From contig QZKH01000003.1 in NCBI GenBank assembly GCA_003598025.1, positions 311,218 through 375,217 of the forward strand: 64,000 nt of DNA, written 5' to 3'. Under the pieces are notes generated by a model. That model had not been told where the DNA came from. It saw only the letters and a program-made list of their open reading frames with translations, and did no database searches. This stretch comes from Candidatus Omnitrophota bacterium. Its GTDB lineage: Bacteria > Omnitrophota > Gorgyraeia > Gygaellales > Profunditerraquicolaceae. Below are positions 3,742 through 60,611 of this stretch, one piece after another. The position numbers were made by a program, and so were the translations under genes. Each line of letters starts with the position of its first letter. The stretch's first letter is position 1.

Positions 3742-3746
3742 AACGG

Positions 3747-35524: not shown

Positions 35525-35632
35525 TCCTTTTTATGCGTTGGCGGCCACAAAATCGCACCTTCGAAGATGCTGATGGAGCTCGGCCTTTCAGTATTTAGCT
35601 CCAAGAAACCTCTGGCTAAAGCCCGAGAAGCT

Positions 35633-41996: not shown

Positions 41997-42009
41997 TATT
42001 TTCCTTTCT

Positions 42010-43305: not shown

Positions 43306-44375
43306 TTCGCCAGATTATATCTTACCCGGGGGCCTAACAAACGCTGGACAAAAACAGGCTGCAGGCCCCAGATTTTTTTAATAAATTGTAAATTCCCGGA
43401 ATCAGGTGTCAGTGGTTCAGGCAAAGCTTGTTTTTGCCTATTATCTTTAAATAAATAATAATAATTATATTGCCTTAACTTTACTGCCCATTTCAACTTA
43501 TAGTTTAACTGGCCCTCATACCTTGCCGGGCCAAAATCAAAATATTGTATACTGTTATTTACTGCCCATTTGATAAATTCCCAATGGACGAGATCTACCG
43601 CCCTTTTGTGGTGCGCTTTCTCATCCGAAGCTATATATTGAATATAAACTCTATCACCGCAGGCAAACCCCAAAAGTGCCGCAATTACCTTTTTACCGTC
43701 CCTGACAAAGAATATCTTCATTTTGTCATTAAAATATTTCAGGCAGGTATAAAAATATTTAATACTTAGCGGCGGGGAAAGAAGCCTGTGATGAGACTTT
43801 AAATACAACGGATAAAAAAACTTCTTAACCGAGCCGTAGCTGGCTTCCTGAAAACATTCTAATTTCTCCCGCAGAGCCTTATTCACAGCCTTCTTTACCT
43901 GATAATCAAATGCCTCCCATAGCCCGGATTCGCCTGCGCTTAAATCAAGCTCAGCATAATTATAAAAATTAAGCTTTAAGAAATTATCCTGCATATAACC
44001 CTCTTCAATACCCAGGCCGCCATTTACCTGGAGGTAATCTAACTTATTATCAGCCATTAAAACTCTTACATATTCTATCAGCTTTGGGAATTCTATACTC
44101 TGCGGACGGTTAGAAATAATACCTCCATATTCAGCGAACGGGACTGATTCCAGCTTCCTATAAAATAGTGTCTTTACTACATAAAGGGGCAGGACGCCGA
44201 AGGCTTCGTTATTTTCGCTTAAAATAAGGTAATAAGGCTTATATCCAAAGACCTCCCTTATTACCTCCTGATACTCGGCCATCTGGTAAAACCTGGCCTG
44301 CCGGCTTGATAATACAAGATTATTCCATTCAGTCTTATTTATGGTACCCTGGCTTTTGATATCCATATTCGTCAT
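43302..44375 (-). CDS. FemAB-like / GNAT-fold acyl- or aminoacyl-transferase
   Basis: 357 aa and soluble. Its length and spacing fit the FemAB/Acetyltransf_6 type. It pairs with a CE4 deacetylase, as in EPS loci. Confidence 0.45.
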   Translation of the reverse strand: MTNMDIKSQGTINKTEWNNLVLSSRQARFYQMAEYQEVIREVFGYKPYYLILSENNEAFGVLPLYVVKTLFYRKLESVPFAEYGGIISNRPQSIEFPKLIEYVRVLMADNKLDYLQVNGGLGIEEGYMQDNFLKLNFYNYAELDLSAGESGLWEAFDYQVKKAVNKALREKLECFQEASYGSVKKFFYPLYLKSHHRLLSPPLSIKYFYTCLKYFNDKMKIFFVRDGKKVIAALLGFACGDRVYIQYIASDEKAHHKRAVDLVHWEFIKWAVNNSIQYFDFGPARYEGQLNYKLKWAVKLRQYNYYYLFKDNRQKQALPEPLTPDSGNLQFIKKIWGLQPVFVQRLLGPRVRYNLAK

Positions 44376-45183
44376 TTAATACATTTTTTACAGAATCAAA
44401 CTCAAAATCTCCAAGCAATTTAATCAGTTTTTGTGCAACAGAATCTTTATTAAAATTAAGTATAAAATCTTCTGCTAAAGGCAGGTCCATGTCAGACTTA
44501 GTATTTAATACCTCATGAGGATGAAAATAAGCCATGGCAGAAGATTTCTTTTTGTTTAACCTTTTAAATACATACCTGGTAACAAAATAAGGCAAAGCCC
44601 TAAGGTAAAAACCTCCTCCGACAATAATGTTTTTCCCGAATAATTTTATAGTAGTCGGCGGGATCTCCCATAACCCGGAATCATGCTTATATATCCTCCT
44701 CTGAGCCCCTTCTATTCCGTATAAGAAGTTTACAGCCGGTGAAATACTGGAATCGTATGAAAACCCGCATTCTTTTATTAAATCAATAGCCCAAAGTGAT
44801 TTCTTTGTAATCGACCAGTACGGAGCGCGAAAACCAATAATCTGAGTACCGGTAATCCTTTCTAAAGCATTTTTTGATCTCATTAAATCATCCTTAAACT
44901 GTTCTGGCTTTAATGTAAAAATTGGCCTATGCTGATAACCATGGCTTGCAATTTCATGGCCGCTATTTACAATATTTTTTACTGCCTGCGGCAGGCGCTC
45001 AGCAATAACACCTAGAACAAAAAAAGTTGCCTTATGATTATATCTTTTCAAAAGACCGAGAAACATATCAATTGAACGCGATACTTCTTCAAGGCCCGCA
45101 GTTTCGTCAACCAGTTTATCCCTGCCATATCTGGAATGCAGGAAACTTTCAACATCTATAGTCAAAATATTCTTAATCATCAA
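44335..45183 (-). CDS. polysaccharide deacetylase (CE4, NodB homology domain)
   Basis: TIDVES is motif 1 (Asp), HGYQH is the His-His metal motif, and RAPYW is present. Confidence 0.75.
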   Translation of the reverse strand: MMIKNILTIDVESFLHSRYGRDKLVDETAGLEEVSRSIDMFLGLLKRYNHKATFFVLGVIAERLPQAVKNIVNSGHEIASHGYQHRPIFTLKPEQFKDDLMRSKNALERITGTQIIGFRAPYWSITKKSLWAIDLIKECGFSYDSSISPAVNFLYGIEGAQRRIYKHDSGLWEIPPTTIKLFGKNIIVGGGFYLRALPYFVTRYVFKRLNKKKSSAMAYFHPHEVLNTKSDMDLPLAEDFILNFNKDSVAQKLIKLLGDFEFDSVKNVLNDEYGYQKPGYHK

Positions 45184-45878
45184 AAACTAAGCCTGAATTT
45201 AATTATTGCCAAAAGCACCTTAAAACCTATACGCCAGTGCAGCTTCTTTCCTTCCCGGTGAGTCCTGGGAACATAATCTATCGGGATCTCATAAATATTT
45301 TGTCCGTTTTTAATAAGCCTTGTCGTGATTTCTGCTTCAATCTCGAAACCATTGGATTTTAAATGTAATTTCTTTGCGACCTCTTTTGTGAAGACTTTAT
45401 GGCACGTAGCTATATCCGAAAGCCGGACCAGGAACAGAATGTTCACTGCCCAGGTTATAAGCTGGTTTCCGATGTAACTGCCAAACCGGGTCATTCCCCT
45501 GCCCCTTAGAAATCTGGAGCCAAATACGACTTTTTTATGGCCTGCAATTATCGGATTTAATAAGTACGGGTATTCTGCCGGCAGGACTTCCAGATCTGCA
45601 TCCTGGATCAGGAAAATATCACCGCTTGCCTCTTTAAACCCCAGCCGTATTGCTGCGCCTTTACCCTTCCTTTTCTCTTCGTGTATTACTTTTATATCTT
45701 TTCTTCCGAGATTCTGCAAAATCTCTTTTGTCCCGTCAGTCGAACAGCCGTCAACTACGATTATCTCTTTTTCAAGCCCGATATCTACATCATCTATCCG
45801 TTTTATGATCTCACGGATAGTGCGCTTTTCATTATAAACTGGTATTATAATCGATACGCTCTTCATTCCCTGATCCAC
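45180..45878 (-). CDS. GT2, DPM1-like polyprenyl-phosphate sugar synthase
   Basis: VSIIIPVYNE, VVDGCSTDGT and QDADL are present. 232 aa. Confidence 0.8.
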   Translation of the reverse strand: MDQGMKSVSIIIPVYNEKRTIREIIKRIDDVDIGLEKEIIVVDGCSTDGTKEILQNLGRKDIKVIHEEKRKGKGAAIRLGFKEASGDIFLIQDADLEVLPAEYPYLLNPIIAGHKKVVFGSRFLRGRGMTRFGSYIGNQLITWAVNILFLVRLSDIATCHKVFTKEVAKKLHLKSNGFEIEAEITTRLIKNGQNIYEIPIDYVPRTHREGKKLHWRIGFKVLLAIIKFRLSF

Positions 45879-46570
45879 TTCTTTAGGTTATCGTTGATCT
45901 CTTCAATATGCTGAAGCTGCTCTATTGCCATCCAATCCTCTTTTATAAAATACGGCAATACGCGTTTTCCTTCTTTAATAACAATATCTATCAGCATCGG
46001 CATCGTAAAAAACTTATTCTTGGGTATATAATTCAAACAGGAAGACTTGATTATATATATACCTGAACTTATAGAATGGTGTTCAACCGGTTTCTCTATA
46101 ATGCCCTTTATGCGGCCGTTTTTGATATCCATTACTCCAAAAGCAAGCCTTTGGGATATCTTTTTTGTCCCGACGCTCAAATCTGATTTCCTGCGGTTAT
46201 GAAAATCAATCATTTTTTCAAAGTCAAGCCTGGTCAGGATATCTCCATTCATCAATAAAAATGATTCTTTATCCGTAAACGCAAATTTATCGGCAATCAA
46301 TTTTAGAGAACCGGCGGTGCCTAACGGCTCTTCTTCATGTATGTAATCAATCTTGATACCGAATTTTCTGCCGTGTTGAAAGTATGTCCGTATAAGCTCA
46401 GCTTTATAGCCGACTGACAATATAAAATGCTTAAAACCGTGTTTCTTCAGACGGTTGATTATTACCTCCAGGATTGGTTTTTCACCAACAGGTATAAGCG
46501 GCTTCGGGATAGCAAAAGTAAGCGGCCGTAACCTGGTACCCTGTCCTCCGGCTAATATTATCGCTTTCAT
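45863..46570 (-). CDS. sugar-1-phosphate nucleotidyltransferase (HddC/GMP-like short NTP-transferase)
   Basis: MKAIILAGGQGTRLRPLT...PKPLIPV...LGTAGSL...MNGDIL resembles heptose/mannose-1-P guanylyltransferases. Confidence 0.8.
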   Translation of the reverse strand: MKAIILAGGQGTRLRPLTFAIPKPLIPVGEKPILEVIINRLKKHGFKHFILSVGYKAELIRTYFQHGRKFGIKIDYIHEEEPLGTAGSLKLIADKFAFTDKESFLLMNGDILTRLDFEKMIDFHNRRKSDLSVGTKKISQRLAFGVMDIKNGRIKGIIEKPVEHHSISSGIYIIKSSCLNYIPKNKFFTMPMLIDIVIKEGKRVLPYFIKEDWMAIEQLQHIEEINDNLKKWIRE

Positions 46571-46589
46571 TTCAACCTCCGATCAATAG

Positions 46590-47582
46590 TTATATAGCAT
46601 AACCTTTACGGTTATACTGATGCTGGTGCGAAGCAACATATTCAATTGTAAGCCTTAACCCTTCCTCGAGGCTGATTTGAGGCCGCCAGCCAAGAAGCTT
46701 CCTTGCTTTTTTATTATCTGCGCATAAGCACATAACCTCGCTTTTCTTTGGCCTTATGCGCATTTTTTCATGCCTGATATCTACATCTTTTCCTATTAAA
46801 CCGGCTATGATTTTTGCAAGCTGGCCGATAGAAACGCTTCTAGATGTGCCAATATTGATAATCTCTCCTGTGCTTTTTGGCGACTCAGCCACCCTGATAA
46901 ACCCGCTGACAGTATCAGCTACATATGTAAAATCTCTTTTCGGCGCGATATTCCCCAGGCAAATGACCCTATTCTTTAAAGCCTGTGCTATTATTGTAGG
47001 GATTACCGCCCTTAATGACTGCCTTGGGCCAAAACAATTAAATGGCCGTATAATAGATACGGGCAGGCCGTAGGAACAGTAAAAACTTAGAGCCAGGGCA
47101 TCGGCTGCAATTTTACTCGCAGAATACGGCGATTGGGCCTGCAGGGGATGCTTTTCATCGATCGGCACATAAAGCGCAGTGCCATAAACCTCACTTGTAG
47201 AAGTCTGCACAATCTTACAGATTTTATTCTCTCTTGCTGCAATCAGTATATTAAGGGTACCCAACGTATTAGTATCGACTACTTCCTGGGGGTGCTCGTA
47301 TGAATAAGGGATGCCCACCAGGGCTGCCAGGTTAAATATTACTTCATTATGATCTACAGCCTTCCTGACGGTTTCCATTTCCTTGATATCTCCATAGAAA
47401 ATTTCAAGCCGCTTGCTTTTATTTACCAATAGATGATTAATGTGGCCTGCGTCGCCATGCGGGTTATATTCGACAAAAGCCCGGACAAACGCGCCTAAAG
47501 AAAGCAGCCTCTCTGTCAGATGGCTTCCTATAAAACCGCCTGCTCCGGTAACTAAAACCTTTTTATCTTTCCATTTAAACAT
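46590..47582 (-). CDS. NAD-dependent NDP-sugar epimerase/dehydratase
   Basis: VLVTGAGGFIGSHL, YSASKIAAD (YxxxK) and STSEVYG are present. Confidence 0.8.
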   Translation of the reverse strand: MFKWKDKKVLVTGAGGFIGSHLTERLLSLGAFVRAFVEYNPHGDAGHINHLLVNKSKRLEIFYGDIKEMETVRKAVDHNEVIFNLAALVGIPYSYEHPQEVVDTNTLGTLNILIAARENKICKIVQTSTSEVYGTALYVPIDEKHPLQAQSPYSASKIAADALALSFYCSYGLPVSIIRPFNCFGPRQSLRAVIPTIIAQALKNRVICLGNIAPKRDFTYVADTVSGFIRVAESPKSTGEIINIGTSRSVSIGQLAKIIAGLIGKDVDIRHEKMRIRPKKSEVMCLCADNKKARKLLGWRPQISLEEGLRLTIEYVASHQHQYNRKGYAI

Positions 47583-49632
47583 TTTGCTTGCTCCTTTTCG
47601 ATTTCAGTTTTGCTCCCAAAAGCTCTTTATATAATTCTGATAATTTCTGAGCATACCTATCTGCTGTAAAATTTTCTATCACTCGTTTTCTGGCAGCATC
47701 TGCATACAAGGATGCGCGTCCCGGATCAAGAAGCAGCTCTTTAATTGCATCTGCCAATGCTTTGGAATCAGCGGGATTAACTAATATGCCGCTCTCTCTA
47801 TCCTGTATAACTTCCGGCACGCCGCCTACACGGGTCGCAACACAGGCAACACCCATATACATCGCCTCGATCAAGACAATACCAAATGCCTCATTCAACG
47901 CAGGAGAGACAAAAACAGAGAATAAAGGCAATAAATCAGCAATGTCCCTTCTTTTGCCGGTAAATAATACCCTATCGGTAATCCTTCTTTCTGAAACTGA
48001 CTCTTCTAACTCATTTCTTAGCGGCCCATCACCTACCAGGACTAACTTTAGCCTCGGCTCCCAGTTTAACAAGTTAAAGACAGCATCAATTAAATAAATA
48101 TGGCCCTTTCTCCTGGCTAGTGACGCAACATAGCCCACAATAATATCTTCCCGGCTCAAGCCCAATTCCTCCAACAATTGATATTTACTCTTAACGGGAG
48201 AAAATTCTGTTGTATCGATTACATTATGGATTACAAGAAACTTTTCAAAAGGAATCCGGTCCTGGCTGCTTATTGATAAAGCTGTCCTGCCAGAACAGGC
48301 TATAATCCTGTCTGTTGAACGTGCCAGCCACCTGTTAACAGGTTTTAACAACCATTCCAATCGCCTGTTATACCTTTCATATTCGCTTTGTTCTTCGGCG
48401 ATTATAACCGGTACCCTGCAAAACCAAGCTGCCAGCCTTGTATGCAAATTAGTATTTGTCAGGCAAGAATGTACGATTGAGAAACTTCCGCGTTTTAAAT
48501 AACGCAGCAAAGCAAACGTAGTAAATAAGTTTAAAGACCTGTCGCTTTTATTAAGACAATCTACCTTAAACCCGAGCTTAATAAACTCCTCTGCGAGGTC
48601 GCCCTTTTCTTTAATGCAACAAATTGAAATTTCCAATCCTGAGCTGTCAAACATTTTCAAAATATTCAGCCTGTTTTTTTCCGCCCCGCCTATCCCTAGT
48701 GTGGGATGCACAAAAAGTACTCTTGGCTTAATTTTCCTGCAAACGACAACAGCCCTGTCTCCGCACTTGAGCCATCTTAAAAGAGTACACCCTGAGATGA
48801 ATGAAGAGATATTCTTTATTCCTATAGATAGCCTATTCTTAAAAGACAACTTTTTATAGACAAAATCTGGCTTGGCTCTATTTTCATATACTTCCTCATA
48901 AATAACCTCAAAACCGGTTGTTTTAAGAATAGCCCTTAAGGTTTCCGGTCTGAATTCCCATAAGTGCGTAGGAGGGCTATCAGAAAGCCTTTCTTTCTTA
49001 AATAACATATTGAATCTCAGAAAAATATTAAAAAGCGAACGGTTATAAGTCAATGGCTGTTCCAGGACCAGGATACCGCTATCCCTAAGCAAATTACCGG
49101 CAAGCTCTAAGCTTTCGGCCGGAGAGGGAACATGCTCCAATACATCTGCCATATTGATTACGTCAAACCGATTACCAGGATATATACCTTTACAAAACTC
49201 GCCATTCTTTATCTCTGCCTTGAGCCTGCTGCTTGCATGTTCAGACATCTTTTTATTTGGTTCCAACCCATAGACATTAAATCCTGCTCTTTGCGCCTGT
49301 AAGCAGAAAGCACCGGCTGCGCACCCGACATCAAGCAGGTCTCCGGAACTCACAAATTTTTTCATTGCAGAGATTGCCTTTAAATGGTGGGGGCTGGCTA
49401 AATCATCATCCTGCAAGCAGCCCAATTTATCTGCCCCAGGAATATAGTATTCATTAAAATAGGAATCGCCGGTATATATGCCTTCCAGGACATCTTTCGA
49501 TGGCATAGGATCGAGATAAATAAAACCGCAATCAACGCAACGGACCAAAAAATACTCTTTTCCCTTGAAAAGATACCCTCCATAGATTGTTTTTTTGTAT
49601 CTTACGGACCCGCAGATTATACAATTCATCAA
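47575..49632 (-). CDS. fusion: N-terminal Zn-ribbon + SAM methyltransferase, C-terminal GT4 glycosyltransferase
   Basis: The N-terminus has CIICGS...CVDCG and LLDVGCAAGAF (motif I). The C-terminus has EAFGIVLIEAMYMGVACVATRVGG, the GT4 E-x7-E motif. Confidence 0.75.
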   Translation of the reverse strand: MMNCIICGSVRYKKTIYGGYLFKGKEYFLVRCVDCGFIYLDPMPSKDVLEGIYTGDSYFNEYYIPGADKLGCLQDDDLASPHHLKAISAMKKFVSSGDLLDVGCAAGAFCLQAQRAGFNVYGLEPNKKMSEHASSRLKAEIKNGEFCKGIYPGNRFDVINMADVLEHVPSPAESLELAGNLLRDSGILVLEQPLTYNRSLFNIFLRFNMLFKKERLSDSPPTHLWEFRPETLRAILKTTGFEVIYEEVYENRAKPDFVYKKLSFKNRLSIGIKNISSFISGCTLLRWLKCGDRAVVVCRKIKPRVLFVHPTLGIGGAEKNRLNILKMFDSSGLEISICCIKEKGDLAEEFIKLGFKVDCLNKSDRSLNLFTTFALLRYLKRGSFSIVHSCLTNTNLHTRLAAWFCRVPVIIAEEQSEYERYNRRLEWLLKPVNRWLARSTDRIIACSGRTALSISSQDRIPFEKFLVIHNVIDTTEFSPVKSKYQLLEELGLSREDIIVGYVASLARRKGHIYLIDAVFNLLNWEPRLKLVLVGDGPLRNELEESVSERRITDRVLFTGKRRDIADLLPLFSVFVSPALNEAFGIVLIEAMYMGVACVATRVGGVPEVIQDRESGILVNPADSKALADAIKELLLDPGRASLYADAARKRVIENFTADRYAQKLSELYKELLGAKLKSKRSKQNV

Positions 49633-51110
49633 TTAAAACTCCCGTAGAATCTTAAAACCTGCCTCTTTGCCCAGGGAGGCATATCAATTTTTTCGATATA
49701 GACGATATCAGCCTTAGAGAATATTTTCAGCCTCTTTACTAACAAATACACAAGGCTAAAGACCAGGAACGAAGAAATTAGGTTTATTAACAATCCCCTA
49801 TTAAATAAGCACAAAATAGATACGATTATTGCCGGCATACTGCAGAATAAAGCCCGAAAATTTACTATTCCAAACTGCTTGTTTATAATGAACATAACCG
49901 CTGCGCATGCTAAAAAGCTGCTTGCGGCTGTGGCAACTGCCGCCCCAGTTATCCCGAATGCCGAAATAAATACGAAATTAAGCAAAATACAAATAACCGC
50001 GGTGATTAAATTTATGCTTCCTGTGAGGCGGATAAAATTAAAGACCGTTGAAACAGGATTATAAAAATATTTAATGCCCATAAACAAACTGCCTAAGGCC
50101 AGTATAATGAATATATTAATTGATTCGGCGTATTTGCTTCCGTATAACATAGGCATGAAAACACTGGCAAATACTATCCCGAGGGTTACTAAGAATGAAA
50201 AAAATAAAGCACATTGAGGCACAAATTTATTGAGATAAAATTTTACGTGTTCATTCCTATCCTGTATCTTATATGAAGTTATAATCGGCATTATCAGGGT
50301 ATACAAGAGTTGCGGGAGCATTACTAAATTTGATGTTAATGTCCAGGCTGCAGAATAAATCCCTACTGCGTAAGTAGAAATAAGTACTTTCAGCATATAT
50401 TTATCCACCCAATCCAGCGAAAAATTCCCCACAACAAAAAATATTACCGGCCAGGAAAAACTTAAGATATCACGGATCATCTTTGTATCGATGCCAAAAT
50501 GGCATATCCCTTTAATCCTCGGCCAAAATATAAGGATCGCGATAATATAAGATAAAGAAAGACAGCTGACCGCAAGGTTAAATCCGAAACTCTTAAAGGA
50601 AATTGCCAAAAACAGCAAAATGATAAAAACAAGGCTTCTTACCAGAGGCATTAATCCGAAAACTTTGAACTGAAGGCTACCCTGAAAACAAAAGTAAAAA
50701 AGATTAAATATTGCAAAAAATACGATGTAAATAAAAATTAAAATTGTTACGAAATGGCTATCTATGCTTAAAAAACTGCTGATCTTACTTCTTAATAAAA
50801 ATAACACTAAACCGACTATTATGGTATTTACAAAGACTATCGTTAATTCAGAATAAAAAGTCTTCCCGATAGACTTAGTTTTAAGAAATTCTTCGCTTGC
50901 AAACTTTGCCGCAGCCGGATTCAAAACCCAAGTAGAAGCAAACATGCTTAATATCTGCGCAGAGAACAGAAAAAGATTATACCTACCGTAATCATACGGC
51001 CCCAGAATCCTGGCTAATATGCTTACGGAAATTATCCCGCCAGCAAAAAGAAACAGCTGAGCCATAGATAAAAAACCATAATTATAAAACAAACGCCTTG
51101 CCTGGGGCAT
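49629..51110 (-). CDS. Wzx-type oligosaccharide flippase (second MOP-family protein)
   Basis: 493 aa with 12-14 TM helices. It has a Wzx-like N-terminus. Confidence 0.6.
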   Translation of the reverse strand: MPQARRLFYNYGFLSMAQLFLFAGGIISVSILARILGPYDYGRYNLFLFSAQILSMFASTWVLNPAAAKFASEEFLKTKSIGKTFYSELTIVFVNTIIVGLVLFLLRSKISSFLSIDSHFVTILIFIYIVFFAIFNLFYFCFQGSLQFKVFGLMPLVRSLVFIILLFLAISFKSFGFNLAVSCLSLSYIIAILIFWPRIKGICHFGIDTKMIRDILSFSWPVIFFVVGNFSLDWVDKYMLKVLISTYAVGIYSAAWTLTSNLVMLPQLLYTLIMPIITSYKIQDRNEHVKFYLNKFVPQCALFFSFLVTLGIVFASVFMPMLYGSKYAESINIFIILALGSLFMGIKYFYNPVSTVFNFIRLTGSINLITAVICILLNFVFISAFGITGAAVATAASSFLACAAVMFIINKQFGIVNFRALFCSMPAIIVSILCLFNRGLLINLISSFLVFSLVYLLVKRLKIFSKADIVYIEKIDMPPWAKRQVLRFYGSFN

Positions 51111-51115
51111 ATTTA

Positions 51116-52249
51116 TCAGTTGATTTTTATCCTTCCGGATACAATTGACATTTTGTTCAAAAGCTCTTCTTCTACCTTCATCGATTTACCGCTTAAATTC
51201 CTGTTTTCCTGCGGGTCACTACCCAAATCATATAGTTCTCTTTTTGCCGTTGCTTCGTTATATATGAGTTTCCAGTCTTTTGTCCTATAAGCACAAATAT
51301 TTGGCTTATTCGGAGAAGGGTGCGGACCGCTTAATGGCGCAGTCTCTATATAAGCCTCTCTGTCAATGACCCTATTCTCCTCTATGCCGTCATAAAAAGA
51401 TTCTCCCTGCATTTTTTTAAAACCCTCTTTCTGTTCAATCCCGAGCATGGCCATTAAGGAAGGCATTATATCAATAGTCCTGACCAGCGCATTGACCTGC
51501 CTGGCCTTCGGAAGTAAGGAATTGTATATAAAATATGCGAATGTCATTACTGTATAATCATATACAAATACGCCATAGCATTTTTCACCCGGCTTCTCGC
51601 CCAAAGAACAGCCATGGTCAGTCAATACCACTATTAAAGTATCTCTGAGGGCATTATCATTAGAAATCAAATCAATTATTTCACGCAGATACCTTCCAGC
51701 CTGCGCGACAAAACCATCATAACGCTCCAGGTTCCTATCTGTTTGGTGAAAATATTCTTTATCATCATCAGTAAATTTATTTACGACCTGACTGATAATC
51801 CCTGTATGGATATTGCTGTATTGGAAGAACAGAAAAAATGGGGCTCTTGTGCCTGCCTCTTTTATCATATCCTTATGCCTTAACGCAAGGTTATCTTTAT
51901 ATTCATCATGCACTGTTATTTCCGAGAAACCCTGAGCAGGAAGTATAATTTTCGACAAGACATCTGCCTTTGTATAATACCCTTGGCCCAAAAGATACTG
52001 CTGCAGCGTCATGCAATTATCAGCATCAAAATCAAGATTGCCGTAATAGGAATCTACACCGTTGCGGCAGCCATACATCCCGGTTAAAATCGCATGTACA
52101 GAGGCAACTGTGTATGGTGCATATGTAACCATGTTTGGAAAAAAAACACCTTCCTGTTTTAAATCCTGAAAAATCTGGAAAGAATCCAGCCTGTCTGCTC
52201 TAAGCTGGTCAATCATCAGAAAGATTATATTGGGCTTATTTTTCATCAA
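51116..52249 (-). CDS. sulfatase-family (alkaline phosphatase superfamily) enzyme with Thr in place of the formylglycine Cys
   Basis: PNIIFLMIDQLRAD is present. YAPYTVASVHAILTG aligns with sulfatase CxPSRAALLTG, but with T at the nucleophile position and no P/R. This is the LtaS/EptA/OpgB type. It is soluble with no N-terminal TM. Confidence 0.6.
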   Translation of the reverse strand: MMKNKPNIIFLMIDQLRADRLDSFQIFQDLKQEGVFFPNMVTYAPYTVASVHAILTGMYGCRNGVDSYYGNLDFDADNCMTLQQYLLGQGYYTKADVLSKIILPAQGFSEITVHDEYKDNLALRHKDMIKEAGTRAPFFLFFQYSNIHTGIISQVVNKFTDDDKEYFHQTDRNLERYDGFVAQAGRYLREIIDLISNDNALRDTLIVVLTDHGCSLGEKPGEKCYGVFVYDYTVMTFAYFIYNSLLPKARQVNALVRTIDIMPSLMAMLGIEQKEGFKKMQGESFYDGIEENRVIDREAYIETAPLSGPHPSPNKPNICAYRTKDWKLIYNEATAKRELYDLGSDPQENRNLSGKSMKVEEELLNKMSIVSGRIKIN

Positions 52250-53424
52250 TGTATGTTCCTCAGGATATTCATTATGCCACCCGGCGAAATACGCCTGGGA
52301 TTATTCGCTAATCTTTCTAAATTAGCGTTCCTGGAAATAACCATCAACTGCCTTTTTGTCTTTACGCCGAGTTTTGAAAGGCTTGTTTCAAGATTTATCT
52401 CTCTCATCAAATAGTATATTTTATCTCTGCAGCTATGGGCATCACGGCAACCCATTAAAGAATATAACTCTTGCAGGCTTTTCTTCACAAAGCTGCTTCC
52501 TCTTGTATCAGCCGAATCCGGATCTGTTATCCTGGAATTAAAAATAAGCGCCTCTCCGATAGTTAAGGCAACAGCATGGCCATGTGGTATGCCAAAATAT
52601 GAAGTTAAGGGATAAGATAAGGCATGTGAAACGGTTGTTTTAGTGATATTGATGGCTTTCCCCGCCAAATGCGCCGCCAGAGACATAGCCTTGCGGCTTG
52701 AACGGGATGGTGATTTAACAGCCCTAACAATATTATTTAACACCAGGTTAATCGCGCGTTTGGCTAATTTTTTAGAAGCCCTGTTTGAAGCAACGCTCCA
52801 ATAGGACTCTACTGCCTGGCAGAAAGCATCCATTCCCGTACAGGCAGTCAGATATTCATCCATAGATGTGCTCAGCTGCGGGTCAATAATAGCTGCTTCA
52901 GGCAATAAATATTTGTTAGAAACAGAATACTTTACTTTGTTACGGTAGAATACCGCAAAGTGCGTTGCCTCGCTGCCGGAACCGGAAGTCGTAGGTATGG
53001 CTATCAGGGGTTTCGGTTTACTGTATGTGTTTTCCTTTGATTTAACATAGTAGTCTATGCTTCTACTTTGGGGAGAGAAGAAATTGACTAATTTTGCCAG
53101 ATCAATAACGCTGCCTCCACCAACAGCAATAGATAGGTCCGGCAAGAATTTTCTATGCGCCCTGATACCTTTCTTAATATCAGATAATTTGGGGTTATCG
53201 CTAAAATCAGAGAATCTGCTGACTCGGTAATGTTTAAGAGTTTTGGTTAAGACGAATTTTGCACCGCTTTTTCCGAACGAACTTTTTCCTGAAAATAAAA
53301 GTATTTTCTTAGGGTGATACTTATCCAAAAGTTTATCCAGTTTTTTCAAACTGCCAAAACCAAAAAATTCTTTATATTTCTTCATTTTATTTAATGGATT
53401 CCATAAACTTTTTCTTAATTTCAT
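52246..53424 (-). CDS. iron-containing (group III) alcohol dehydrogenase; candidate phosphonoacetaldehyde reductase (FomC/PhpC-like)
   Basis: VGGGSVIDLAK, AIPTTSGSGSE and HGHAVA are Fe-ADH motifs. It lies directly downstream of ppd. Confidence 0.75.
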   Translation of the reverse strand: MKLRKSLWNPLNKMKKYKEFFGFGSLKKLDKLLDKYHPKKILLFSGKSSFGKSGAKFVLTKTLKHYRVSRFSDFSDNPKLSDIKKGIRAHRKFLPDLSIAVGGGSVIDLAKLVNFFSPQSRSIDYYVKSKENTYSKPKPLIAIPTTSGSGSEATHFAVFYRNKVKYSVSNKYLLPEAAIIDPQLSTSMDEYLTACTGMDAFCQAVESYWSVASNRASKKLAKRAINLVLNNIVRAVKSPSRSSRKAMSLAAHLAGKAINITKTTVSHALSYPLTSYFGIPHGHAVALTIGEALIFNSRITDPDSADTRGSSFVKKSLQELYSLMGCRDAHSCRDKIYYLMREINLETSLSKLGVKTKRQLMVISRNANLERLANNPRRISPGGIMNILRNIH

Positions 53425-54514
53425 ATAACGAGGTTGTTGGCCGCCCTAATCCGGGCCTTGAGCCCTTTTTTACGATAACTTCTATTAAACACGGCCCATG
53501 CTGTTTTGTATCATTCAAAGATTTTATCAGCTGGCTGACAGAATAAACCCTGCATGCTTTCCTATATCTGCAGGCAAGGGCAATAGAAACAATATCAATA
53601 TTGAGCGCGGCTGTAGCTTGCCCTCCTACAGAGTCGTGACAGCCATTATTTAAAACGATATGCACAAAATTAGCAGGGGAAGTTGAGCCGATTATTGCCA
53701 TGCCGCCCATGTGCATAATAAGAGCCCCGTCTCCATCAAGGCAGTAGATCGATTTCCTGCTCTCTAACGCAACTCCTAATGCAACCTGAGAAGCATGCCC
53801 CATGGAACCAACTGTCATAAAATCCAGGTTATGCGAAAGCTCAAGTGACTGGCGAACCTCAAACAACTCCCTGGAGATATAGCCTGTTGAAGAAACAACA
53901 ATACTCCGGTCACTGATATTGCTGATTATGGTTTTTATTGCTTCTTCGCGGCTCATAAATGAAAGGTCGCTCTTTGGTGTTTTTGACGCTCTCTTTATAT
54001 AGGGCTCAAAGGTTCCCTTTTTCACTATAATTGCTACAGGACAGCTGCGCTTAATCATAATCCCGTAGAGTTCTTTGACAATTTTATCAGCTCCGGCAAG
54101 ATCCCCCGGCAGGATCCTGTAAGGAACACCCAGCGCCTTCAACATCCCTAAAGTGACTTTACCCTGTTTTAGATGCTGAGGCTCATCTTTAACCTGCGGC
54201 TCCCCGCGCCAGCCGATCAACAACAGCATCGGTATTCCATAAACTTCAGGATCAGCCAGAGATAAAAGTGGGTTAACGCTGTTACCCAACCCTGAATTCT
54301 GCATATATACGAGCCCCGGCCTGGCGGTAGCTAAGAAATTCCCTGCAGCTAAAGCTATCGCATTGCCCTCATTAGCTGCGATAATATGTTTTTTCCTGCC
54401 GACCGTATCCTCAATAAATGCACAAAAATCCTTTAAAAGAGAATCCGGAACTCCGGAAAAAAAGCTTATTTTTTTTCGCGTAACCAGTTTAAAGAAATCC
54501 CTTGGTTTCAGCAT
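53387..54514 (-). CDS. ppd: phosphonopyruvate decarboxylase (ThDP-dependent)
   Basis: 375 aa. [11 protein letters not shown]-x-NNG is the ThDP GDG-x24-NN motif. Its length and position next to the PEP mutase fit Ppd/Fom2/AepY. Confidence 0.8.
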
Positions 54515-55821
54515 GTATTATCCTTCTCCCAATTTATTAAGCTGATTATTTCTTTTATCGGCATACACAAATTCTCACAATCATACGCCCTTTCGTTCTT
54601 GAGGATCTCTATGGCGACCTTTTCCATAGCAGGATAAGCGGCGCGCAGCAACTGGTTTGCATAAATAACCATATTCACGCCGTTTTTTATGAGCTCATTT
54701 TCATGGACTTGGCTGCAAGTAGAGGGTGCGACAACTAAAGGCACCTTTTTGTCAAATTCGGCATATTCCTTGCAAAAATTAAATATTTCCTCCGGGGTAT
54801 TTTGCCTGGTGTGGATCATGACCCCATCTGCACCGGCACCGATATAAGCCTTTGCCCTGCTGACAGCGTCATCCATACCCTTATTTAAGATAAGGCTTTC
54901 TACCCTGGCTATAATCATAAAATCATCAGTAACCTGGGATTTCTTGCCCATACTGATCTTATGACAAAAATTTTCTATACTATCCTGTGTCTGATTTGCT
55001 TCCGCGCCAAAAAGAGAATTTTTCTTAAGCCCTATCTTATCTTCGATTATTACCGCTGAAACCCCCAGCCTCTCAAGTGTCTTGACTTCAAAAATAAAAT
55101 GATCAGTTATACCGCCGGTATCCCCATCAAATATTATTGGCTTGGTGGTAACTTCTAATATCTCATTTAAGGATATCGACCGCGAGGTCAAATCAACACA
55201 CTCTATATCTGGCTTGCCCTTTGCAGTAGAATCAGTAAGGCTGCTGAGCCAGATGGCATCAAACTCTTTGTTTACCTGCCCATTAGAAAACCGCGCATTC
55301 TCTACTATCAATCCGGTAATACCATTATGGGCTTCAAGCACCCTGACAAAGCCTTTTGCCTGGAACATCCTTCGAAGCTGCCTGATCCTTACCTGAGGAG
55401 TAGTGCCTATTGAACGCAACTTTTCATGCAGCAGGGTTGAGGATATGCCTGCAGTATATGGGATTTCAACCAGCCTGCCGCCCCATTTTTTTAACGTTTC
55501 AATCACCCTATCCCTGACCTTTGCCTGTACACCCTCCCTCCAGTCATCACCGTGCACGACATAATCGGGGCGCAACTCTTCAAGGTTCCGGACATAATCC
55601 AGCGTATCCTGAGGCACCACCATGGAGACACCTTTTATATTCTCTATGATTATTTTTCTCTGCTCAAAAGACAGAAAAGGGATCCTCTTGTAGCTTGCTA
55701 TAGCGCTATCAGTAAGAAGCCCAACTGTCACCTCCCCGAGTTTTTTTGCTTCATTAATGATATTCAGGTGCCCGGGATGGACTAAGTCAGCGCTCATTGC
55801 CACATATACTTTTTTCGACAT
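54508..55821 (-). CDS. bifunctional cytidylyltransferase / phosphoenolpyruvate mutase (Fom1-like)
   Basis: The N-terminal ~130 aa have [16 protein letters not shown], the HxGH cytidylyltransferase motif. The C-terminal ~290 aa have [53 protein letters not shown] and [12 protein letters not shown]. These match the PEP mutase active-site blocks block by block. Confidence 0.9.
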
Positions 55822-55839
55822 ATTTTTGTCTCCTTGTAT

Positions 55840-57591
55840 CTATTTTATGTAGCCAAGTTTTTTCAGTTCTTGGCTCACTGCTTCTATATCCTTCTTATTA
55901 TTTTTACTTATATATTCCTGCCTTTTAACGCGGCAATGAGAATAATCCTTGAATCTTGGCTCTTGCAGACTTAAAAAACTATCATTAAAAATCTCTTTAT
56001 TTACTTTTCCATCCAGGTCTTCTGGTATCGGCAGTGACCTTGAATATAATACATTGGCAAATATATCTACTATATCTAAACCAATGACCCTTGAATTTTT
56101 ATTTGCCTTTGGGCCGCAAAATATAAACAATGCTTCGATACTATGGTCTAAAACCGGCTCTTTGAATTTTCTTACATGTTTTCCCGATATGATTTTCGTC
56201 CTGTCACTAAACCCGCTGAATCCTATATATTCATTTTTTAGCTTCGCGATTATATCGGGCATCTCATTTAGAAACCGGCCTGAAAACACCTCTTCTCTTA
56301 AATAAACCCTTTCAACAATTTTTTCACCTGTATCCGGATCGGTGATTTCACTCAGTAATTTTATTAACTCCTGCCTGAATAACTCATATTCCCTGCCTTG
56401 GTTAATAATACCAAACGGCCGCTGGCCTCTGGTATTAATCGTTACGGGCAAATAATTGCTTGTCGGAGGAAGCAGACTGTAAGCCTTGGTCTTAAGCCAG
56501 TCAAAAGGACAAGGATTAGTTAAATTGTCATCGATAATATCTTTAGAAAACCTGAAAAAAGGCACTGAAGGAAGGTTAAAAGAAACTTTAATCTTATATA
56601 ATAAATTCATGATTTTATGCCATAAGCTAGCCTTCTTATCATGCTCTTTATCAGCAAAGTTTCTTACTTGCTCATTAATACTCACTAAGCCTAACAACTT
56701 ATTTTCATAAAGCCACCTATGCAGTAAAAATTCCTTATTATAGTTAGCAGCTCCGTGGTCAGAAACGATAAAAAGGTCGGTTTTGGCCAGATCTACCGCT
56801 GCCATGATTTCGCTTAATATTGAATCAAGCTTAATATAAAGGCTGTCAATATACTCTCCGTTAAGGCCTAGCATGTGGTGGGCTTTATCGGGGCTCATGA
56901 AACCAAGCGTAAACATGTCCCAATCGTAATTCTCCATTATGCATAATGCCGTATCCTTGGTTTTATTCATCTTATACACATACGGTTCTGGCCTTGAAAG
57001 ATCATAATCAAAAAATTTAGTTACTGCCAGTTCCGTAAAATACCCAACCTTTCTTAAGGGCTCACAAAGGAAAGCAGGATAACAGAAGTTTTCATCCTTT
57101 GGGCTTAAATAATCCGAAATCATTATGCCGTTTATCCTCTCAGGAGGAAATGAAAGCGGTATATTCATGACAACTGAATTCAAACCGAAATCACTAAAAA
57201 TATCCCAGTACCTGGGCTCATCAATCATAGAAGCATTAACTACTACGGGGCTTAAAATATTCTTATCGTATCTATAATAACCGGTAACGCCGTGTTTAGC
57301 AGGATTTTTTCCGGTAATAAAGCTTGGCCATGCCGGCAGGCTGTCAGGAGGAATAGTGGAATTCATTTTTCCGCTTGCCCCGCTATTGATCAACATCTTA
57401 AAAGTAGGCAAAAGCCCCTTTGAAACCATATCTTCCACTTTATCAAGGCTTATGCCGTCAATAGCTATCACGAGAGTCCTACATTGAGAAACAGACGACC
57501 TGCCTGTAGGTATAAGCTTAAGCGCGTCTTTAAGCAGAGCCATCGGCTCAAATTGCCTTTCAAATTTCTGCGCATCAAAGCTTTTGCTCAT
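55840..57591 (-). CDS. alkaline-phosphatase-superfamily type I phosphodiesterase/nucleotide pyrophosphatase-like protein
   Basis: VIAIDGISLD is the DG metal motif. PPDSLPAWPSFITGKNPAKHGV aligns with NPP [22 protein letters not shown], placing Ser at the nucleophile position. 583 aa. Confidence 0.6.
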   Translation of the reverse strand: MSKSFDAQKFERQFEPMALLKDALKLIPTGRSSVSQCRTLVIAIDGISLDKVEDMVSKGLLPTFKMLINSGASGKMNSTIPPDSLPAWPSFITGKNPAKHGVTGYYRYDKNILSPVVVNASMIDEPRYWDIFSDFGLNSVVMNIPLSFPPERINGIMISDYLSPKDENFCYPAFLCEPLRKVGYFTELAVTKFFDYDLSRPEPYVYKMNKTKDTALCIMENYDWDMFTLGFMSPDKAHHMLGLNGEYIDSLYIKLDSILSEIMAAVDLAKTDLFIVSDHGAANYNKEFLLHRWLYENKLLGLVSINEQVRNFADKEHDKKASLWHKIMNLLYKIKVSFNLPSVPFFRFSKDIIDDNLTNPCPFDWLKTKAYSLLPPTSNYLPVTINTRGQRPFGIINQGREYELFRQELIKLLSEITDPDTGEKIVERVYLREEVFSGRFLNEMPDIIAKLKNEYIGFSGFSDRTKIISGKHVRKFKEPVLDHSIEALFIFCGPKANKNSRVIGLDIVDIFANVLYSRSLPIPEDLDGKVNKEIFNDSFLSLQEPRFKDYSHCRVKRQEYISKNNKKDIEAVSQELKKLGYIK

Positions 57592-57596
57592 ACTCT

Positions 57597-57953
57597 TTAA
57601 TCCTTGCCTTTGCCGTGTCCGGCATTACCATTAAAGGCCTCAATTTCTCTCTTTAATTTCTCGTACTGTTCCATCTTCCAGACAAAAAATTCCTGCGTAA
57701 GCCTGACCTTAGTCTTTATGCCATCAGGAGTCAACATGTACATATATCCAATTTTATTTTTTGAGTTTTTAAAATTCTTAATCTCAATAAAGCCTTTTTC
57801 AACAAAGGCATTGATAAGAAAATTGACTTTGCCTAGGCTGATCTTCAGCTTTTGTGAAAGGTAGCGCTGGGTGATCTGGGGATTAGCTTCGATTTCCGTT
57901 AGGACCCCTAAGGAATGCTCTAATTTGACTATATTATTACCATTATTATCCAT
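57597..57953 (-). CDS. MarR-type winged-helix transcriptional regulator (EPS-locus associated type)
   Basis: 118 aa. ITQRYLSQKLKISLGKVNFLINAFVEKGFI is the HTH. It is the first gene after the only clear promoter-like gap in the 3' half of the window. Confidence 0.6.
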   Translation of the reverse strand: MDNNGNNIVKLEHSLGVLTEIEANPQITQRYLSQKLKISLGKVNFLINAFVEKGFIEIKNFKNSKNKIGYMYMLTPDGIKTKVRLTQEFFVWKMEQYEKLKREIEAFNGNAGHGKGKD

Positions 57954-57977
57954 ATATGTTCAGACCTTGAACATATA
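57953..57977. promoter_or_regulatory. perfect 10-bp inverted repeat TATATGTTCA-gacct-TGAACATATA overlapping the MarR start codon; candidate operator
   Basis: Read directly from the sequence. The arms are at 57953-57962 and 57968-57977. The ATG of the regulator (57953-57951) lies at the edge of the left arm. Confidence 0.5.
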
Positions 57978-58021
57978 ATATATCAGATAAAATAAAAAAC
58001 TCAAATAATATTTTGTAAAAG

Positions 58022-58050
58022 ATTATACTGTAGGCGGTTACATTTGACTA
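58022..58050 (-). promoter_or_regulatory. putative sigma70-like promoter for the MarR-phosphonate operon
   Basis: On the minus strand: TAGTCA (-35-like, 4/6), an 18-nt spacer, then TATAAT (perfect -10). This lies in the 94-bp gap upstream of the regulator. Confidence 0.3.
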
Positions 58051-59124
58051 AAAATTAATACTGGCGCCTGAAGTGACGACAAAATCTCTGGAATTTAACT
58101 GCTGCAGCTTAATAAATACTCTACTATCTTTGCCGAAAACCCCCCTTACGCCTAAATTTAACTTCATGCCCAAGGATTTGCCCTCTTTGGAAAGCAGCTC
58201 AATGACTATCTCATTGTTATCTCCTAGTCTAAAATTTGACCCGAATTGGATTAACTTAACCTGGCTATCACCGTATTTAACCTCAAACGATAACCCGGTT
58301 TTTCTAAAAAGCTTCCAAATCCCATAAATAGATATGATTTTATATTGATTATCCTTCTTAGATAACCCTGCACCTAAGCGATATTTAATACAACCATCTT
58401 TGGGATAAAGATTCGGGCTTTCTAACTGTACTTTGAATTCAAGACCGCTATCCCTTGAATCAGCAAGTATATATTTTAACCTGTTGGTTGCATCAATGCT
58501 CCAGAATCCGTCAAATGCAATTTCATGATATGACTTTTTCTTGGTCTTAAGCTCCCTTCGATTGTAACTATATGAAATATTCTGGTTATCATTCAACTGC
58601 CAGGAATTCTTTAAAACAATACTACTGTCCCTTTTTGTAGCCACTTCAAAAGTGAGCCGGTTCTTTTTGTCCGCACACCAGAGGCCGGTGATGGCCATTA
58701 AATAAAAATGGCCCAAATAAAACTTATGTACCGATGTTTTATCCGGGCCGAGATTATTAAAATAAACGCCCTTTTCCTCTACAGTCTTGATTTCAAATCT
58801 CAGACTGTTATCATTGACGGCGAGTATATCGCCTTTTAAAACAAGCCTCTGAAGCCTGCCGTTTTCTTTCGAGCCCGTAACGGTAAATACCAGGTTATGG
58901 TCTTTATCCAGGCTCCATCTGCCTTCAAATTCGATTTTCGAAGGGAGATTCTCCTTTATCCTCCAGCGGTTTGGTTCATTAAGCTCATATATAAGATTAT
59001 TATTCTTATCGGCCTTGAATCTGCCGTTTACCGTTATGGCCCTTTTGGATCCGGGCTTTTTGATTATCAAACGGTTATTATTATCTACGGAATAAATCGG
59101 CATTAATTGCTCCGGCAGCTGCAT
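58048..59124 (-). CDS. hypothetical tandem-repeat protein
   Basis: 358 aa with at least four ~40-aa repeats of the form G-x-W-x-x-D-x-x-N-R-L-x-F (GRWSLDKDHNLVF, GLWCADKKNRLTF, GFWSIDATNRLKY, GIWKLFRKTGLSF). There is no signal peptide. It ends in ...ASINF. Confidence 0.4.
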   Translation of the reverse strand: MQLPEQLMPIYSVDNNNRLIIKKPGSKRAITVNGRFKADKNNNLIYELNEPNRWRIKENLPSKIEFEGRWSLDKDHNLVFTVTGSKENGRLQRLVLKGDILAVNDNSLRFEIKTVEEKGVYFNNLGPDKTSVHKFYLGHFYLMAITGLWCADKKNRLTFEVATKRDSSIVLKNSWQLNDNQNISYSYNRRELKTKKKSYHEIAFDGFWSIDATNRLKYILADSRDSGLEFKVQLESPNLYPKDGCIKYRLGAGLSKKDNQYKIISIYGIWKLFRKTGLSFEVKYGDSQVKLIQFGSNFRLGDNNEIVIELLSKEGKSLGMKLNLGVRGVFGKDSRVFIKLQQLNSRDFVVTSGASINF

Positions 59125-60611
59125 TTGCCCCTTTTAAAATCAGCTATATGCCCTATTACCTTCTTTGCGGCCATAAAATAGTATTTTAAATCATCCAGAT
59201 CCCTGATTGAGATTAGTTTCCTGAATATAAATTCCGGAGAAAGTGAAATCTTATACATGTATTCAACCATTTCTTTAAGTTTGTCGTCGCTGATCAAAGT
59301 TTTCATCACAGGCTTAGTCATATCATAGTCATCCCAATCCGAATACTTCAGCCAACCGTTAGATCTGCATTCATCAAAGAGCATGGAGCCCGGATAAGGG
59401 ATCACAATAGTTGCCTGCATAGTATAAGCATAACCTTTTAGCAACAGCCATCTGCCTAATTTTAAAGTCTTAACGGCATCATCGTACGTCTCCCACGGAT
59501 AGCCGAACATTATAGTGATGTGTGGATACAGGCCTGCACGCCTTGCATCTTTACAAGAAGTTATTATTTCCTCAACCTTCAAATTTTTATTAATCCGGTC
59601 AAGTGTGCTTTGGTTTGCTGATTCTATTCCAAATAGAAGCAGGCGGAAACCCGCGCTCTTCATGCTTTTATATTCCTCAAAATTTAAGGCGCCAAAACGC
59701 ATATTGCAATCAAAATAAACATCTTTATTATAACCTCTCTGCCTGGCCCCATTACAAAAGTCGCTAAGCCAACTTCCCGTAGGAAGGCTTCCTGAATCAT
59801 CCATTATTTCTTTCACGCCGTATTTATCTATCAGTATCCCGACCTCATCTAAGACGCTGTTAACGCTGCGGCTCCTAAACCTGGGATAAAGGGTAGGCCA
59901 ACTACAAAATGTGCATTTGCCCCACCAGCAATCTCTGGCTGACATTATGTACGTCCCGGGTTTTAGCTTATAATTTCCGTTCTTAAACGCATAATTTCTC
60001 CATTTAGTTAAATCCCGGTCGATAAACGGGATGTTGTCTAATTCGTGGTCAAGCTTAAACTTGCCGGTATTGCTTATACGGTTATCATCTCTATACCAAA
60101 TCCCCGCCTCAAGCTTTGTTATCGTGCCGGAGTTTAACGAAAAAGTGCTGCTCTTTGCGATTAAATTACACAAGTTAAGCAAAAGGAAATCATAATCTCC
60201 TCCCGTCAGAATAAAATCTACCTTACAATTCAGCATAGACTCTTCAGGAAGCGCTGTTACATGGTCGCCGAATAATACAGTTTTTACCTTTTTGCCGTCT
60301 ATGCTTAACGAGCTCAGTTCGTCAATCATCTTCCAGTGCTGCTTTACTACCGGGGTCTTGGTTTCAAAAGCTATCAGGTCCGGTTTCTCTTTTTTTATAA
60401 TCTCGATAAATTCTTGCCGTGAAATATTCTCAGCAATAGAATCCAGCCACAAAACATCATAGCCGTTTCTCTTTAGTAAAGTCGCGGCCTGGGCAGGGAC
60501 CACAGGATAAATATAAGTAGGCTCAGTGAAATACTGGAATTGCCTGTTTTGACCCAGGGTAGGATATCCTTTCGCTGATATTAATGGCGGATAAGCTATT
60601 ATTACTTTCAA
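59103..60611 (-). CDS. B12-binding radical SAM enzyme (class B), non-canonical Cys spacing
   Basis: 502 aa. There is an N-terminal B12-binding-like domain. The cluster is SARDCWWGKCTFCS (C-x4-C-x2-C). FGIESANQ is a radical SAM core block. Confidence 0.75.
   Translation of the reverse strand: MKVIIAYPPLISAKGYPTLGQNRQFQYFTEPTYIYPVVPAQAATLLKRNGYDVLWLDSIAENISRQEFIEIIKKEKPDLIAFETKTPVVKQHWKMIDELSSLSIDGKKVKTVLFGDHVTALPEESMLNCKVDFILTGGDYDFLLLNLCNLIAKSSTFSLNSGTITKLEAGIWYRDDNRISNTGKFKLDHELDNIPFIDRDLTKWRNYAFKNGNYKLKPGTYIMSARDCWWGKCTFCSWPTLYPRFRSRSVNSVLDEVGILIDKYGVKEIMDDSGSLPTGSWLSDFCNGARQRGYNKDVYFDCNMRFGALNFEEYKSMKSAGFRLLLFGIESANQSTLDRINKNLKVEEIITSCKDARRAGLYPHITIMFGYPWETYDDAVKTLKLGRWLLLKGYAYTMQATIVIPYPGSMLFDECRSNGWLKYSDWDDYDMTKPVMKTLISDDKLKEMVEYMYKISLSPEFIFRKLISIRDLDDLKYYFMAAKKVIGHIADFKRGKCSCRSN

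Follow-up and report, generated by a model that had tools for sequence, protein, structure and literature searches.

A conserved palindrome abutting a MarR_EPS regulator gene as its likely operator in an Omnitrophota phosphonate-polysaccharide gene array

Described systems and the Omnitrophota regulator

Autorepression by a winged-helix dimer that sits on an operator over its own promoter is a textbook mechanism, exemplified by the autoregulated MarR repressors (E. coli MarR with marO, S. aureus MepR, HcaR and PcaV), which are homodimeric winged-helix proteins with a palindromic operator of about 20 bp over the -10/+1 region of their own operon promoter. In this report, we set beside these systems a locus from Candidatus Omnitrophota bacterium, contained in a stretch of 64,000 nt of contig QZKH01000003.1 (the window, numbered from its first letter), in which a perfect palindrome abuts the start codon of a gene for a regulator of the family TIGR04176 (MarR_EPS). 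This palindrome is likely to be the cognate operator of the adjacent regulator, at which the protein would occlude a promoter and repress its own gene together with the genes behind it. The cross-phylum operator consensus for TIGR04176 appears to be new; no functional study of the family or the motif was found in the literature searched, which is not proof that the motif is unpublished.

Short PadR-like regulators of subfamily 2 (M. tuberculosis Rv3488, 5zi8; Listeria, 6abq/6abt; TA0346, 3elk) also resemble the window protein, in that a winged helix-turn-helix and a single long dimerisation helix make up a chain of about 100-110 amino acids, and they give the best global superposition on its model, with TM scores of 0.63-0.64 and root-mean-square deviations of 2.4-4.7 Å. 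There is, however, no significant sequence similarity to these proteins, which are associated with phenolic/detoxification genes, whereas the window family sits in polysaccharide loci. The 'MarR' of the Leptospira rfb locus belongs to the same family as the window protein (loci L050, L059, L068, L069, L073 and L079, at 45-48% identity), and the same GTTCA-N5-TGAAC lies upstream of it. Its gene is the landmark that initiates the rfb (O-antigen) locus (PMC10958091), and no binding site or regulatory role for this 'MarR' was found in the literature examined. Lastly, the JUMPstart/ops leaders with RfaH-type NusG paralogues are comparable in that they, too, belong to long unidirectional polysaccharide operons.

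The gene and the palindrome in question are the following:

57597..57953, minus strand: regulator gene, 118 amino acids, NCBIfam TIGR04176 MarR_EPS
57953..57977: extended palindrome TATATGTTCA-N5-TGAACATATA, arms 57953-57962 and 57968-57977; proposed operator
57958..57972: invariant core GTTCA-N5-TGAAC, half-site centres 10 bp apart; sole copy in the window

An earlier note, made by a model from the sequence without database searches, had called the protein a MarR regulator, and the identification is borne out by the TIGR04176 model ('MarR family EPS-associated transcriptional regulator'), which it matches over profile positions 4-100 of 105 with 121.1 bits, above the curated cutoff of 88. The start codon at 57953 is supported because the N-terminus aligns with that of 44 homologues. 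One database protein, P0001, is 100% identical to it. In Pfam, the only match is the winged-helix model PF13412 HTH_24; the window protein does not match the MarR model PF01047, and some homologues have precomputed PF01047 or PF12802 matches. The surroundings are those of a surface-polysaccharide cluster, as the family name leads one to expect, with flippases, GT2/GT4 glycosyltransferases, sugar epimerases, an NTP-transferase and phosphonate genes as neighbours.

The AlphaFold2 monomer model (pLDDT 88.8, pTM 0.73) comprises helices a1 (3-23), a2 (29-35) and a3 (40-53), a beta wing (56-62, 68-74) and a long C-terminal helix (76-113), with a2-a3 as the helix-turn-helix. When searched with Foldseek against the PDB, MarR proteins come out on top by E-value (HcaR, MepR, PcaV and MarR-DNA complexes; the nearest structures are 4rgu, 3eco, 4lln and 5h3r), at TM scores of about 0.5 and with large root-mean-square deviations, while the best superpositions are with the short PadR-like 5zi8, 6abq and 3elk. 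Unlike the MarR repressors, with their six-helix fold and inter-domain ligand cleft, the window protein, of only 118 amino acids, is modelled with one N-terminal and one long C-terminal helix, and the canonical MarR ligand cleft is not visible in the monomer model. Sequence profiles likewise pointed to no solved structure in the PDB that is closely related: the best match was the winged helix-turn-helix of LrpA (E = 4e-6), and the others were a metal regulator and weak MarR matches. As modelled, the regulator is a minimal MarR/PadR-like winged helix that resembles the short PadR-like proteins at least as well as MarR. Its sequence contains no cysteine.

A palindrome of fixed geometry beside MarR_EPS genes

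The comparison that carries the argument covered 80 loci with family members, taken from GTDB species representatives (protein identity 40-67%; 561,391 nt in total) and drawn from Omnitrophota, Smithella and other Deltaproteobacteria/Desulfobacterota, Nitrospirae/Nitrospirota, Thermodesulfovibrionales, Spirochaetia, Leptospira, Gammaproteobacteria, Betaproteobacteria, Methylotenera, Variovorax, Pelagibacteraceae, Aminicenantes and Auribacterota. The exact core GTTCA-N5-TGAAC is found in 73 of these loci, almost always as a single copy and almost always upstream of the regulator, with at least 49 sites no more than 250 nt from the regulator start codon, and the intergenic DNA around it is otherwise unalignable across loci. 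The spacing is strict: with 5 nt between the half-sites there are 76 copies in the whole set, while each other spacer from 0 to 12 nt gives 0-2 copies and the everted arrangement 0-3, against a chance expectation of about 0.5 under a uniform model. The 76 sites yield the extended consensus AT-n-Y-GTTCA-N5-TGAAC-R-n-AT, with which the window site agrees on both flanks. The fixed 5-nt spacer sets the centres of the two half-sites 10 bp apart, about one helical turn, which is the geometry expected for a winged-helix dimer, and the invariance of the core half-site is paralleled in the protein, where the recognition-helix residues Q29, R30, S39, L40, G41 and N44 are invariant across the family.

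The reverse test started from the motif. Metagenome contigs were scanned with ATNTGTTCAN5TGAACANAT and without reference to any gene, and at 35 of the 80 matches listed (44%) a MarR_EPS homologue is encoded, usually at a distance of 0-150 nt and transcribed away from the site. Among the 45 listed matches without such a gene, about 12 fall within long open reading frames (ORFs) and are probably chance matches, several lie at or near contig ends, and some adjoin polysaccharide genes, a NusG paralogue or a phosphonopyruvate decarboxylase. One fragment without MarR_EPS (L122) has a phosphonopyruvate-decarboxylase-like gene at 898-2013 on its minus strand, beside a motif-only site at 2098-2120; the N-terminus of this gene resembles that of window 53387-54514, and the site may mark another phosphonate-polysaccharide promoter under the same operator.

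These data bear most directly on the explanation that the palindrome is the DNA site of a different conserved factor acting at polysaccharide-operon promoters. We regard it as unlikely, although it is the best placed of the alternatives: assignment to MarR_EPS comes from co-occurrence, the 45 listed matches lack the gene on their fragment and in part stand beside polysaccharide genes, and several loci have a NusG paralogue between the site and the regulator. Against this, MarR_EPS is the only DNA-binding protein common to all loci, and indeed no other gene is common to them (a NusG paralogue is present in 24 of the 80). Recovery of a rare gene by a 16-nt motif at 44% of the matches listed is far above any background, the matches within long ORFs and near contig ends probably account for part of the remainder, and the invariant core has its parallel in an invariant recognition helix of MarR_EPS.

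With the palindrome as the operator of MarR_EPS, we envisage a dimer whose interface is probably the long C-terminal helix, with one recognition helix set on GTTCA and the other on TGAAC. An internal promoter is predicted here, and since the site follows immediately on its extended -10 element and spans both the predicted start and the short leader to the ATG, bound regulator would block RNA polymerase at the -10/+1 region. The regulator gene itself would be repressed in this way, as would, by co-transcription with it, the phosphonate and polysaccharide genes directly behind. Thus, the autoregulatory operator surmised in the earlier note is very probably just that, as judged from the cross-phylum conservation of the core, the strict 5-nt spacer and the recovery of the regulator by a search with the motif only; physical binding, repression, the transcription start and the extent of the unit are what we infer from these observations. 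For the window, this locates the probable switch point of the phosphonate-decorated polysaccharide genes and corrects the promoter involved. More widely, a regulator family of broad distribution, to which the 'MarR' landmark of the serovar-determining Leptospira rfb locus belongs, now has a proposed binding motif that is exact enough to be tested, and regulons can be predicted by sequence, also in organisms such as the unculturable Omnitrophota.

Two variations on the site were seen in the other loci. Tandem palindromes stand upstream of the regulator in a Pelagibacteraceae locus (L042:3948-3985) and in L066:3758-3813, 23 nt and 41 nt apart from start to start, and such pairs may act cooperatively as double operators. 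In some Nitrospirota and Deltaproteobacteria loci, the leader between palindrome and regulator has direct-repeat arrays with the half-site-like TTGAAC (for example, repeated ctttgaac, or ttgaacgttgaacatagaacattgaac), as at about 3930-3990 in L020, 3880-3990 in L024 and 2350-2500 in L021.

Promoter, leader and the weighing of explanations

Read on the coding strand, the DNA in front of the regulator gene runs TTGAGT tttttattttatc TGa TATATT atat GTTCA aggtc TGAAC atat ATG, with the following elements:

57999..58004, minus strand: -35 hexamer TTGAGT (P2), 32 nt upstream of the G of GTTCA
57977..57985, minus strand: extended -10 element TGaTATATT, with TG at 57985-57984 and the hexamer at 57982-57977; overlaps the outer edge of the palindrome
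57963..57968, minus strand: weak Shine-Dalgarno-like AAGG (57968-57965) in the palindrome spacer, 11 nt before the ATG
58022..58050, minus strand: TAGTCA-17-TATAAT, the promoter-like element of the earlier note; 10 of 12 consensus positions matched, the best in the region

When the loci are anchored on the G of GTTCA, TTGAC is most frequent at two distances, -36 (11 loci) and -30/-31 (12 loci). With either of them, the -10 element would stand immediately in front of the palindrome or against it, and transcription would be predicted to begin at the palindrome or within it. The two closest relatives, L081 and L082 (70% identity), read TTGACA/TTGACC-17-TACTAT/TACCAT-at-GTTCAaccatTGAACaaATG, and the layout of the nearest relatives, to which the window aligns, is TTGAC-N16/17-TGnTAnnAT-at-GTTCA-N5-TGAAC-aa-ATG. 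An alignment of nine Omnitrophota sequences, the window and eight relatives, is invariant at TTGA of the -35 hexamer, the G of the extended -10 TG, T.TGTTCA, TGAACA and the AT of the start codon. The best fit to this layout in the window is a candidate promoter TTGAGT-16-TGaTATATT (58004-57977), directly abutting the palindrome; TATTAT at 57980-57975 offers an alternative reading of the -10 element (TTGAGT-18-TATTAT). Since the -10 element overlaps the outer edge of the palindrome, transcription is predicted to start at about 57968-57970, within the promoter-proximal half-site, which would leave a leader of 15-17 nt to the ATG. The only Shine-Dalgarno-like element of this leader is AAGG, presumptive in function, and relatives often have AGG or AGGA in the same spacer (L006, L007, L008 and L010).

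The earlier note had pointed to a promoter-like element of TAGTCA and TATAAT, said to be separated by 18 nt; the spacer is in fact 17 nt (58050-58022). This pair lies about 45 nt further upstream than the TTGAGT promoter, its TAGTCA hexamer contains the stop codon of the upstream ORF, and it has no conserved counterpart in the relatives compared. Promoter-like hexamers are at chance level in this AT-rich region (8 found, 7.6 expected). It is TTGAGT-16-TGaTATATT that fits the conserved layout; a promoter role for TAGTCA/TATAAT is neither supported nor excluded. The earlier reading was also off by one detail of the arm, which was said to include the T of the ATG: the plus-strand T at 57953 is the A of the minus-strand ATG.

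The short leader is where another explanation must be weighed, namely that the conserved element acts as a leader RNA hairpin that masks the AGG and start codon, stabilises the 5' end, or is read by a NusG paralogue in antitermination of the LoaP type. A 10-bp stem does form in the predicted fold (centroid) of read-through RNA, with the AGG in the loop and the AUG abutting the stem; in the '-36' promoter class the whole palindrome would be transcribed, and in some phyla NusG-paralogue genes and the ops-like GGCGGTAG accompany the site. What is conserved, however, is sequence and not pairing. Over an alignment of 76 sites, 65.6% of the cells of a 14-pair stem are paired, and 65.5% in shuffles. 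No variation occurs in the five core pairs; beyond this invariant core, pairing is at shuffle level, with no support from compensatory changes, and 52 of the 76 sites are unpaired at the second position out from the core. The spacer is fixed at 5 nt; transcripts of the window promoter class are predicted to start inside the promoter-proximal half-site, so that the hairpin could not form in the regulator's own transcript; and shuffled sequences fold as well as the window's intergenic RNA does (z = 0.40). NusG paralogues, moreover, are confined to the 24 loci already mentioned, with none in the window, and ops, where present, is a separate element about 60 nt downstream. For these reasons, we rate a leader hairpin as improbable, a shade below the different DNA-binding factor, and on the last two counts we also rejected the palindrome as an ops site for a NusG paralogue. 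The palindrome was likewise tried as an intrinsic terminator of the upstream gene and rejected: there is no terminator-like site in 57954-58047 and no T-run after the stem.

It is very improbable that TGAAC is the -35 element of an extracytoplasmic-function (ECF) sigma promoter of the GAAC type, with the palindrome incidental. The -35 boxes of such promoters commonly contain GAAC, yet the distance from TGAAC to the ATG is 2-4 nt both in the window and among its Omnitrophota relatives, which would put the start inside the ORF, and strict two-fold symmetry with a 5-nt spacer is not a property of a sigma -35 box.

The repeat itself is exactly as the earlier note described it: TATATGTTCA-gacct-TGAACATATA at 57953-57977, with arms of 10 + 10 nt, complementary at 10 of 10 positions, and a 5-nt spacer. 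Perfect 10-nt inverted repeats with spacers of 0-12 nt were counted against 100 dinucleotide shuffles of the window, and three distinct places carry one, compared with 1.83 +/- 1.69 in the shuffles, so that the repeat taken by itself is not significant within the window. The other two, at 30123-30143 and 34005-34035, are both within ORFs and consistent with chance. The half-site TATATGTTCA has no second exact copy in the 64 kb, and with up to one mismatch it is not over-represented (11 matches, 6.5 +/- 2.7 expected). The core GTTCA-N5-TGAAC occurs once in the window, even when one mismatch is allowed, and the window's only operator is, therefore, the one at the regulator's own promoter. It is the cross-genome comparison, and not the statistics of the window, that decisively argues for a non-random site; a chance AT-rich palindrome without function, which those counts would allow, is of negligible probability given that core, spacer and position are conserved across phyla in otherwise unalignable intergenic DNA.

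Several observations weigh against repression by MarR_EPS at this operator. Binding is assigned from co-occurrence in loci that were selected through the regulator, an objection that the reverse test answers in part. A search for co-variation between protein and DNA, in which the core-flanking base (T/A or C/G) was set against the alignment columns, gave no clean signal, and the best mutual information (0.34) was in columns outside the helix-turn-helix. In loci of the Leptospira type, the site is upstream of the -35 box and not over -10/+1, so that regulation may not have the same sign in every lineage, and repression in the window is read from position only. The -35 hexamer of the window, TTGAGT, is weak, and the start site is a predicted one. 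Finally, the regulator is embedded in an array of genes that all read the same way, the 94-nt gap in front of it holds no terminator, and read-through from upstream could bypass control at the promoter; that a bound repressor might act as a roadblock to such read-through is speculation.

What the promoter may control, and its counterparts in other lineages

Every long ORF of the window is encoded on the minus strand, and the packing is tight, with only six gaps longer than 25 nt, one of which is 57954-58047, in front of the regulator. The genes behind it begin as follows:

52246..57591, minus strand: first genes behind the regulator, separated by gaps of 5 and 18 nt and then overlapping; a PF01663 phosphodiesterase-like protein, a cytidylyltransferase-phosphoenolpyruvate (PEP) mutase fusion, a phosphonopyruvate decarboxylase and an Fe-alcohol dehydrogenase

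The phosphonate genes that had been proposed behind the regulator are, therefore, present. The fusion (54508-55821, minus strand) matches the PEP mutase model TIGR02320 at residues 149-431 and cytidylyltransferase models at about 5-136; together with the Fe-alcohol dehydrogenase and the PF01663 protein, it suggests a pathway for decoration with hydroxyethyl- or aminoethyl-phosphonate activated by cytidine monophosphate (CMP). Farther downstream are a sulfatase-like protein, a flippase, glycosyltransferases, sugar-nucleotide enzymes, a second B12-radical SAM enzyme, PMT_2-type transferases and others.

The genes at 52246-57591 are probably co-transcribed with the regulator, and their co-regulation by the operator is a reasonable inference. 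The earlier note had extended control to a whole phosphonate/radical SAM module, of which the proximal phosphonate part stands on this footing; the radical SAM gene at 59103-60611 is upstream and, like all genes above 58048, is transcribed before the operator is reached, so that this promoter cannot control it. The further suggestion that the entire operon answers to the site fails by position for those upstream genes, and for the array downstream it is an unproven one, drawn from tight packing on the same strand. No outstanding terminator was found in 38000-57960, where 25 weak matches (18.2 +/- 4.1 expected) are all within ORFs, and the first sizeable downstream gap is at 35525-35632. The best terminator-like hairpin of the minus-strand array, CCAAAAAAA-N5-TTTTTTTGG with a T-run on the coding strand, is at 9697-9719 in the gap 9531-9729, where a very long transcription unit may terminate.

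Two B12-binding radical SAM enzymes flank the operator, at 40572-41996 and 59103-60611 (both minus strand), the latter being most similar to HpnJ-type proteins at a score far below the cutoff. The 358-amino-acid ORF directly upstream of the regulator (58048-59124, minus strand) has no Pfam or NCBIfam match.

As to the effector, a phosphonate or a nucleotide sugar had been proposed, which is speculation. The same regulator and operator head loci of differing chemistry: a Kdo-transferase-like protein, a radical SAM/SPASM protein and a nitroreductase in L081, GFO/IDH oxidoreductases within rml-type genes in L082, and a GDP-fucose synthase in the Leptospira rfb locus. This diversity makes a phosphonate-specific effector unlikely.

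In Leptospira, the palindrome is placed differently: it stands 8 nt upstream of TTGACA and about 0.15-1.15 kb before the gene, in contrast to the window, where it abuts the ATG, and the Leptospira site may activate or act on the UP/-35 region. Across the Leptospira loci and L072 (Leptonemataceae), the distance from palindrome to TTGACA is 8-12 nt, with sites at locus positions of about 2835-3836. The Leptospira leader has a conserved GGCGAAGCTA after the palindrome, and spirochaete and Leptospira loci carry GGCGAAGCTA in place of GGCGGTAG.

Of 77 related sites, 20 have the ops-like GGCGGTAG downstream of the palindrome; 17 of these have it at +57 to +64 nt, and in two it is 26-42 nt further out. 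The NusG-paralogue genes (Pfam PF02357) adjoin either before the site or between site and regulator. The two elements differ in kind, ops being a signal to elongation in single-stranded non-template DNA and the palindrome a separate promoter element of the duplex type, and their association with a NusG paralogue suggests that leaders of long polysaccharide operons may combine a promoter-operator with antitermination. Neither partner is found in the window: it lacks a NusG paralogue, and since its three GGCGGTAG matches are all within ORFs, it has no intergenic ops.

We lean slightly towards a general form of this proposal, in which GTTCA-N5-TGAAC (ATnYGTTCA-N5-TGAACRnAT) would be the universal TIGR04176 operator, gating long surface-polysaccharide operons in many phyla, including Omnitrophota, Pelagibacteraceae and the rfb locus of Leptospira, and in several lineages would be followed at some 60 nt by an ops-like element to which a NusG paralogue is recruited; initiation gate and antitermination would then make up a conserved module of two tiers. 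The loci that bear ops include L020, L024, L025, L029, L030, L031, L033, L037, L040, L046, L052, L057, L067, L071, L075 and L076, among others.

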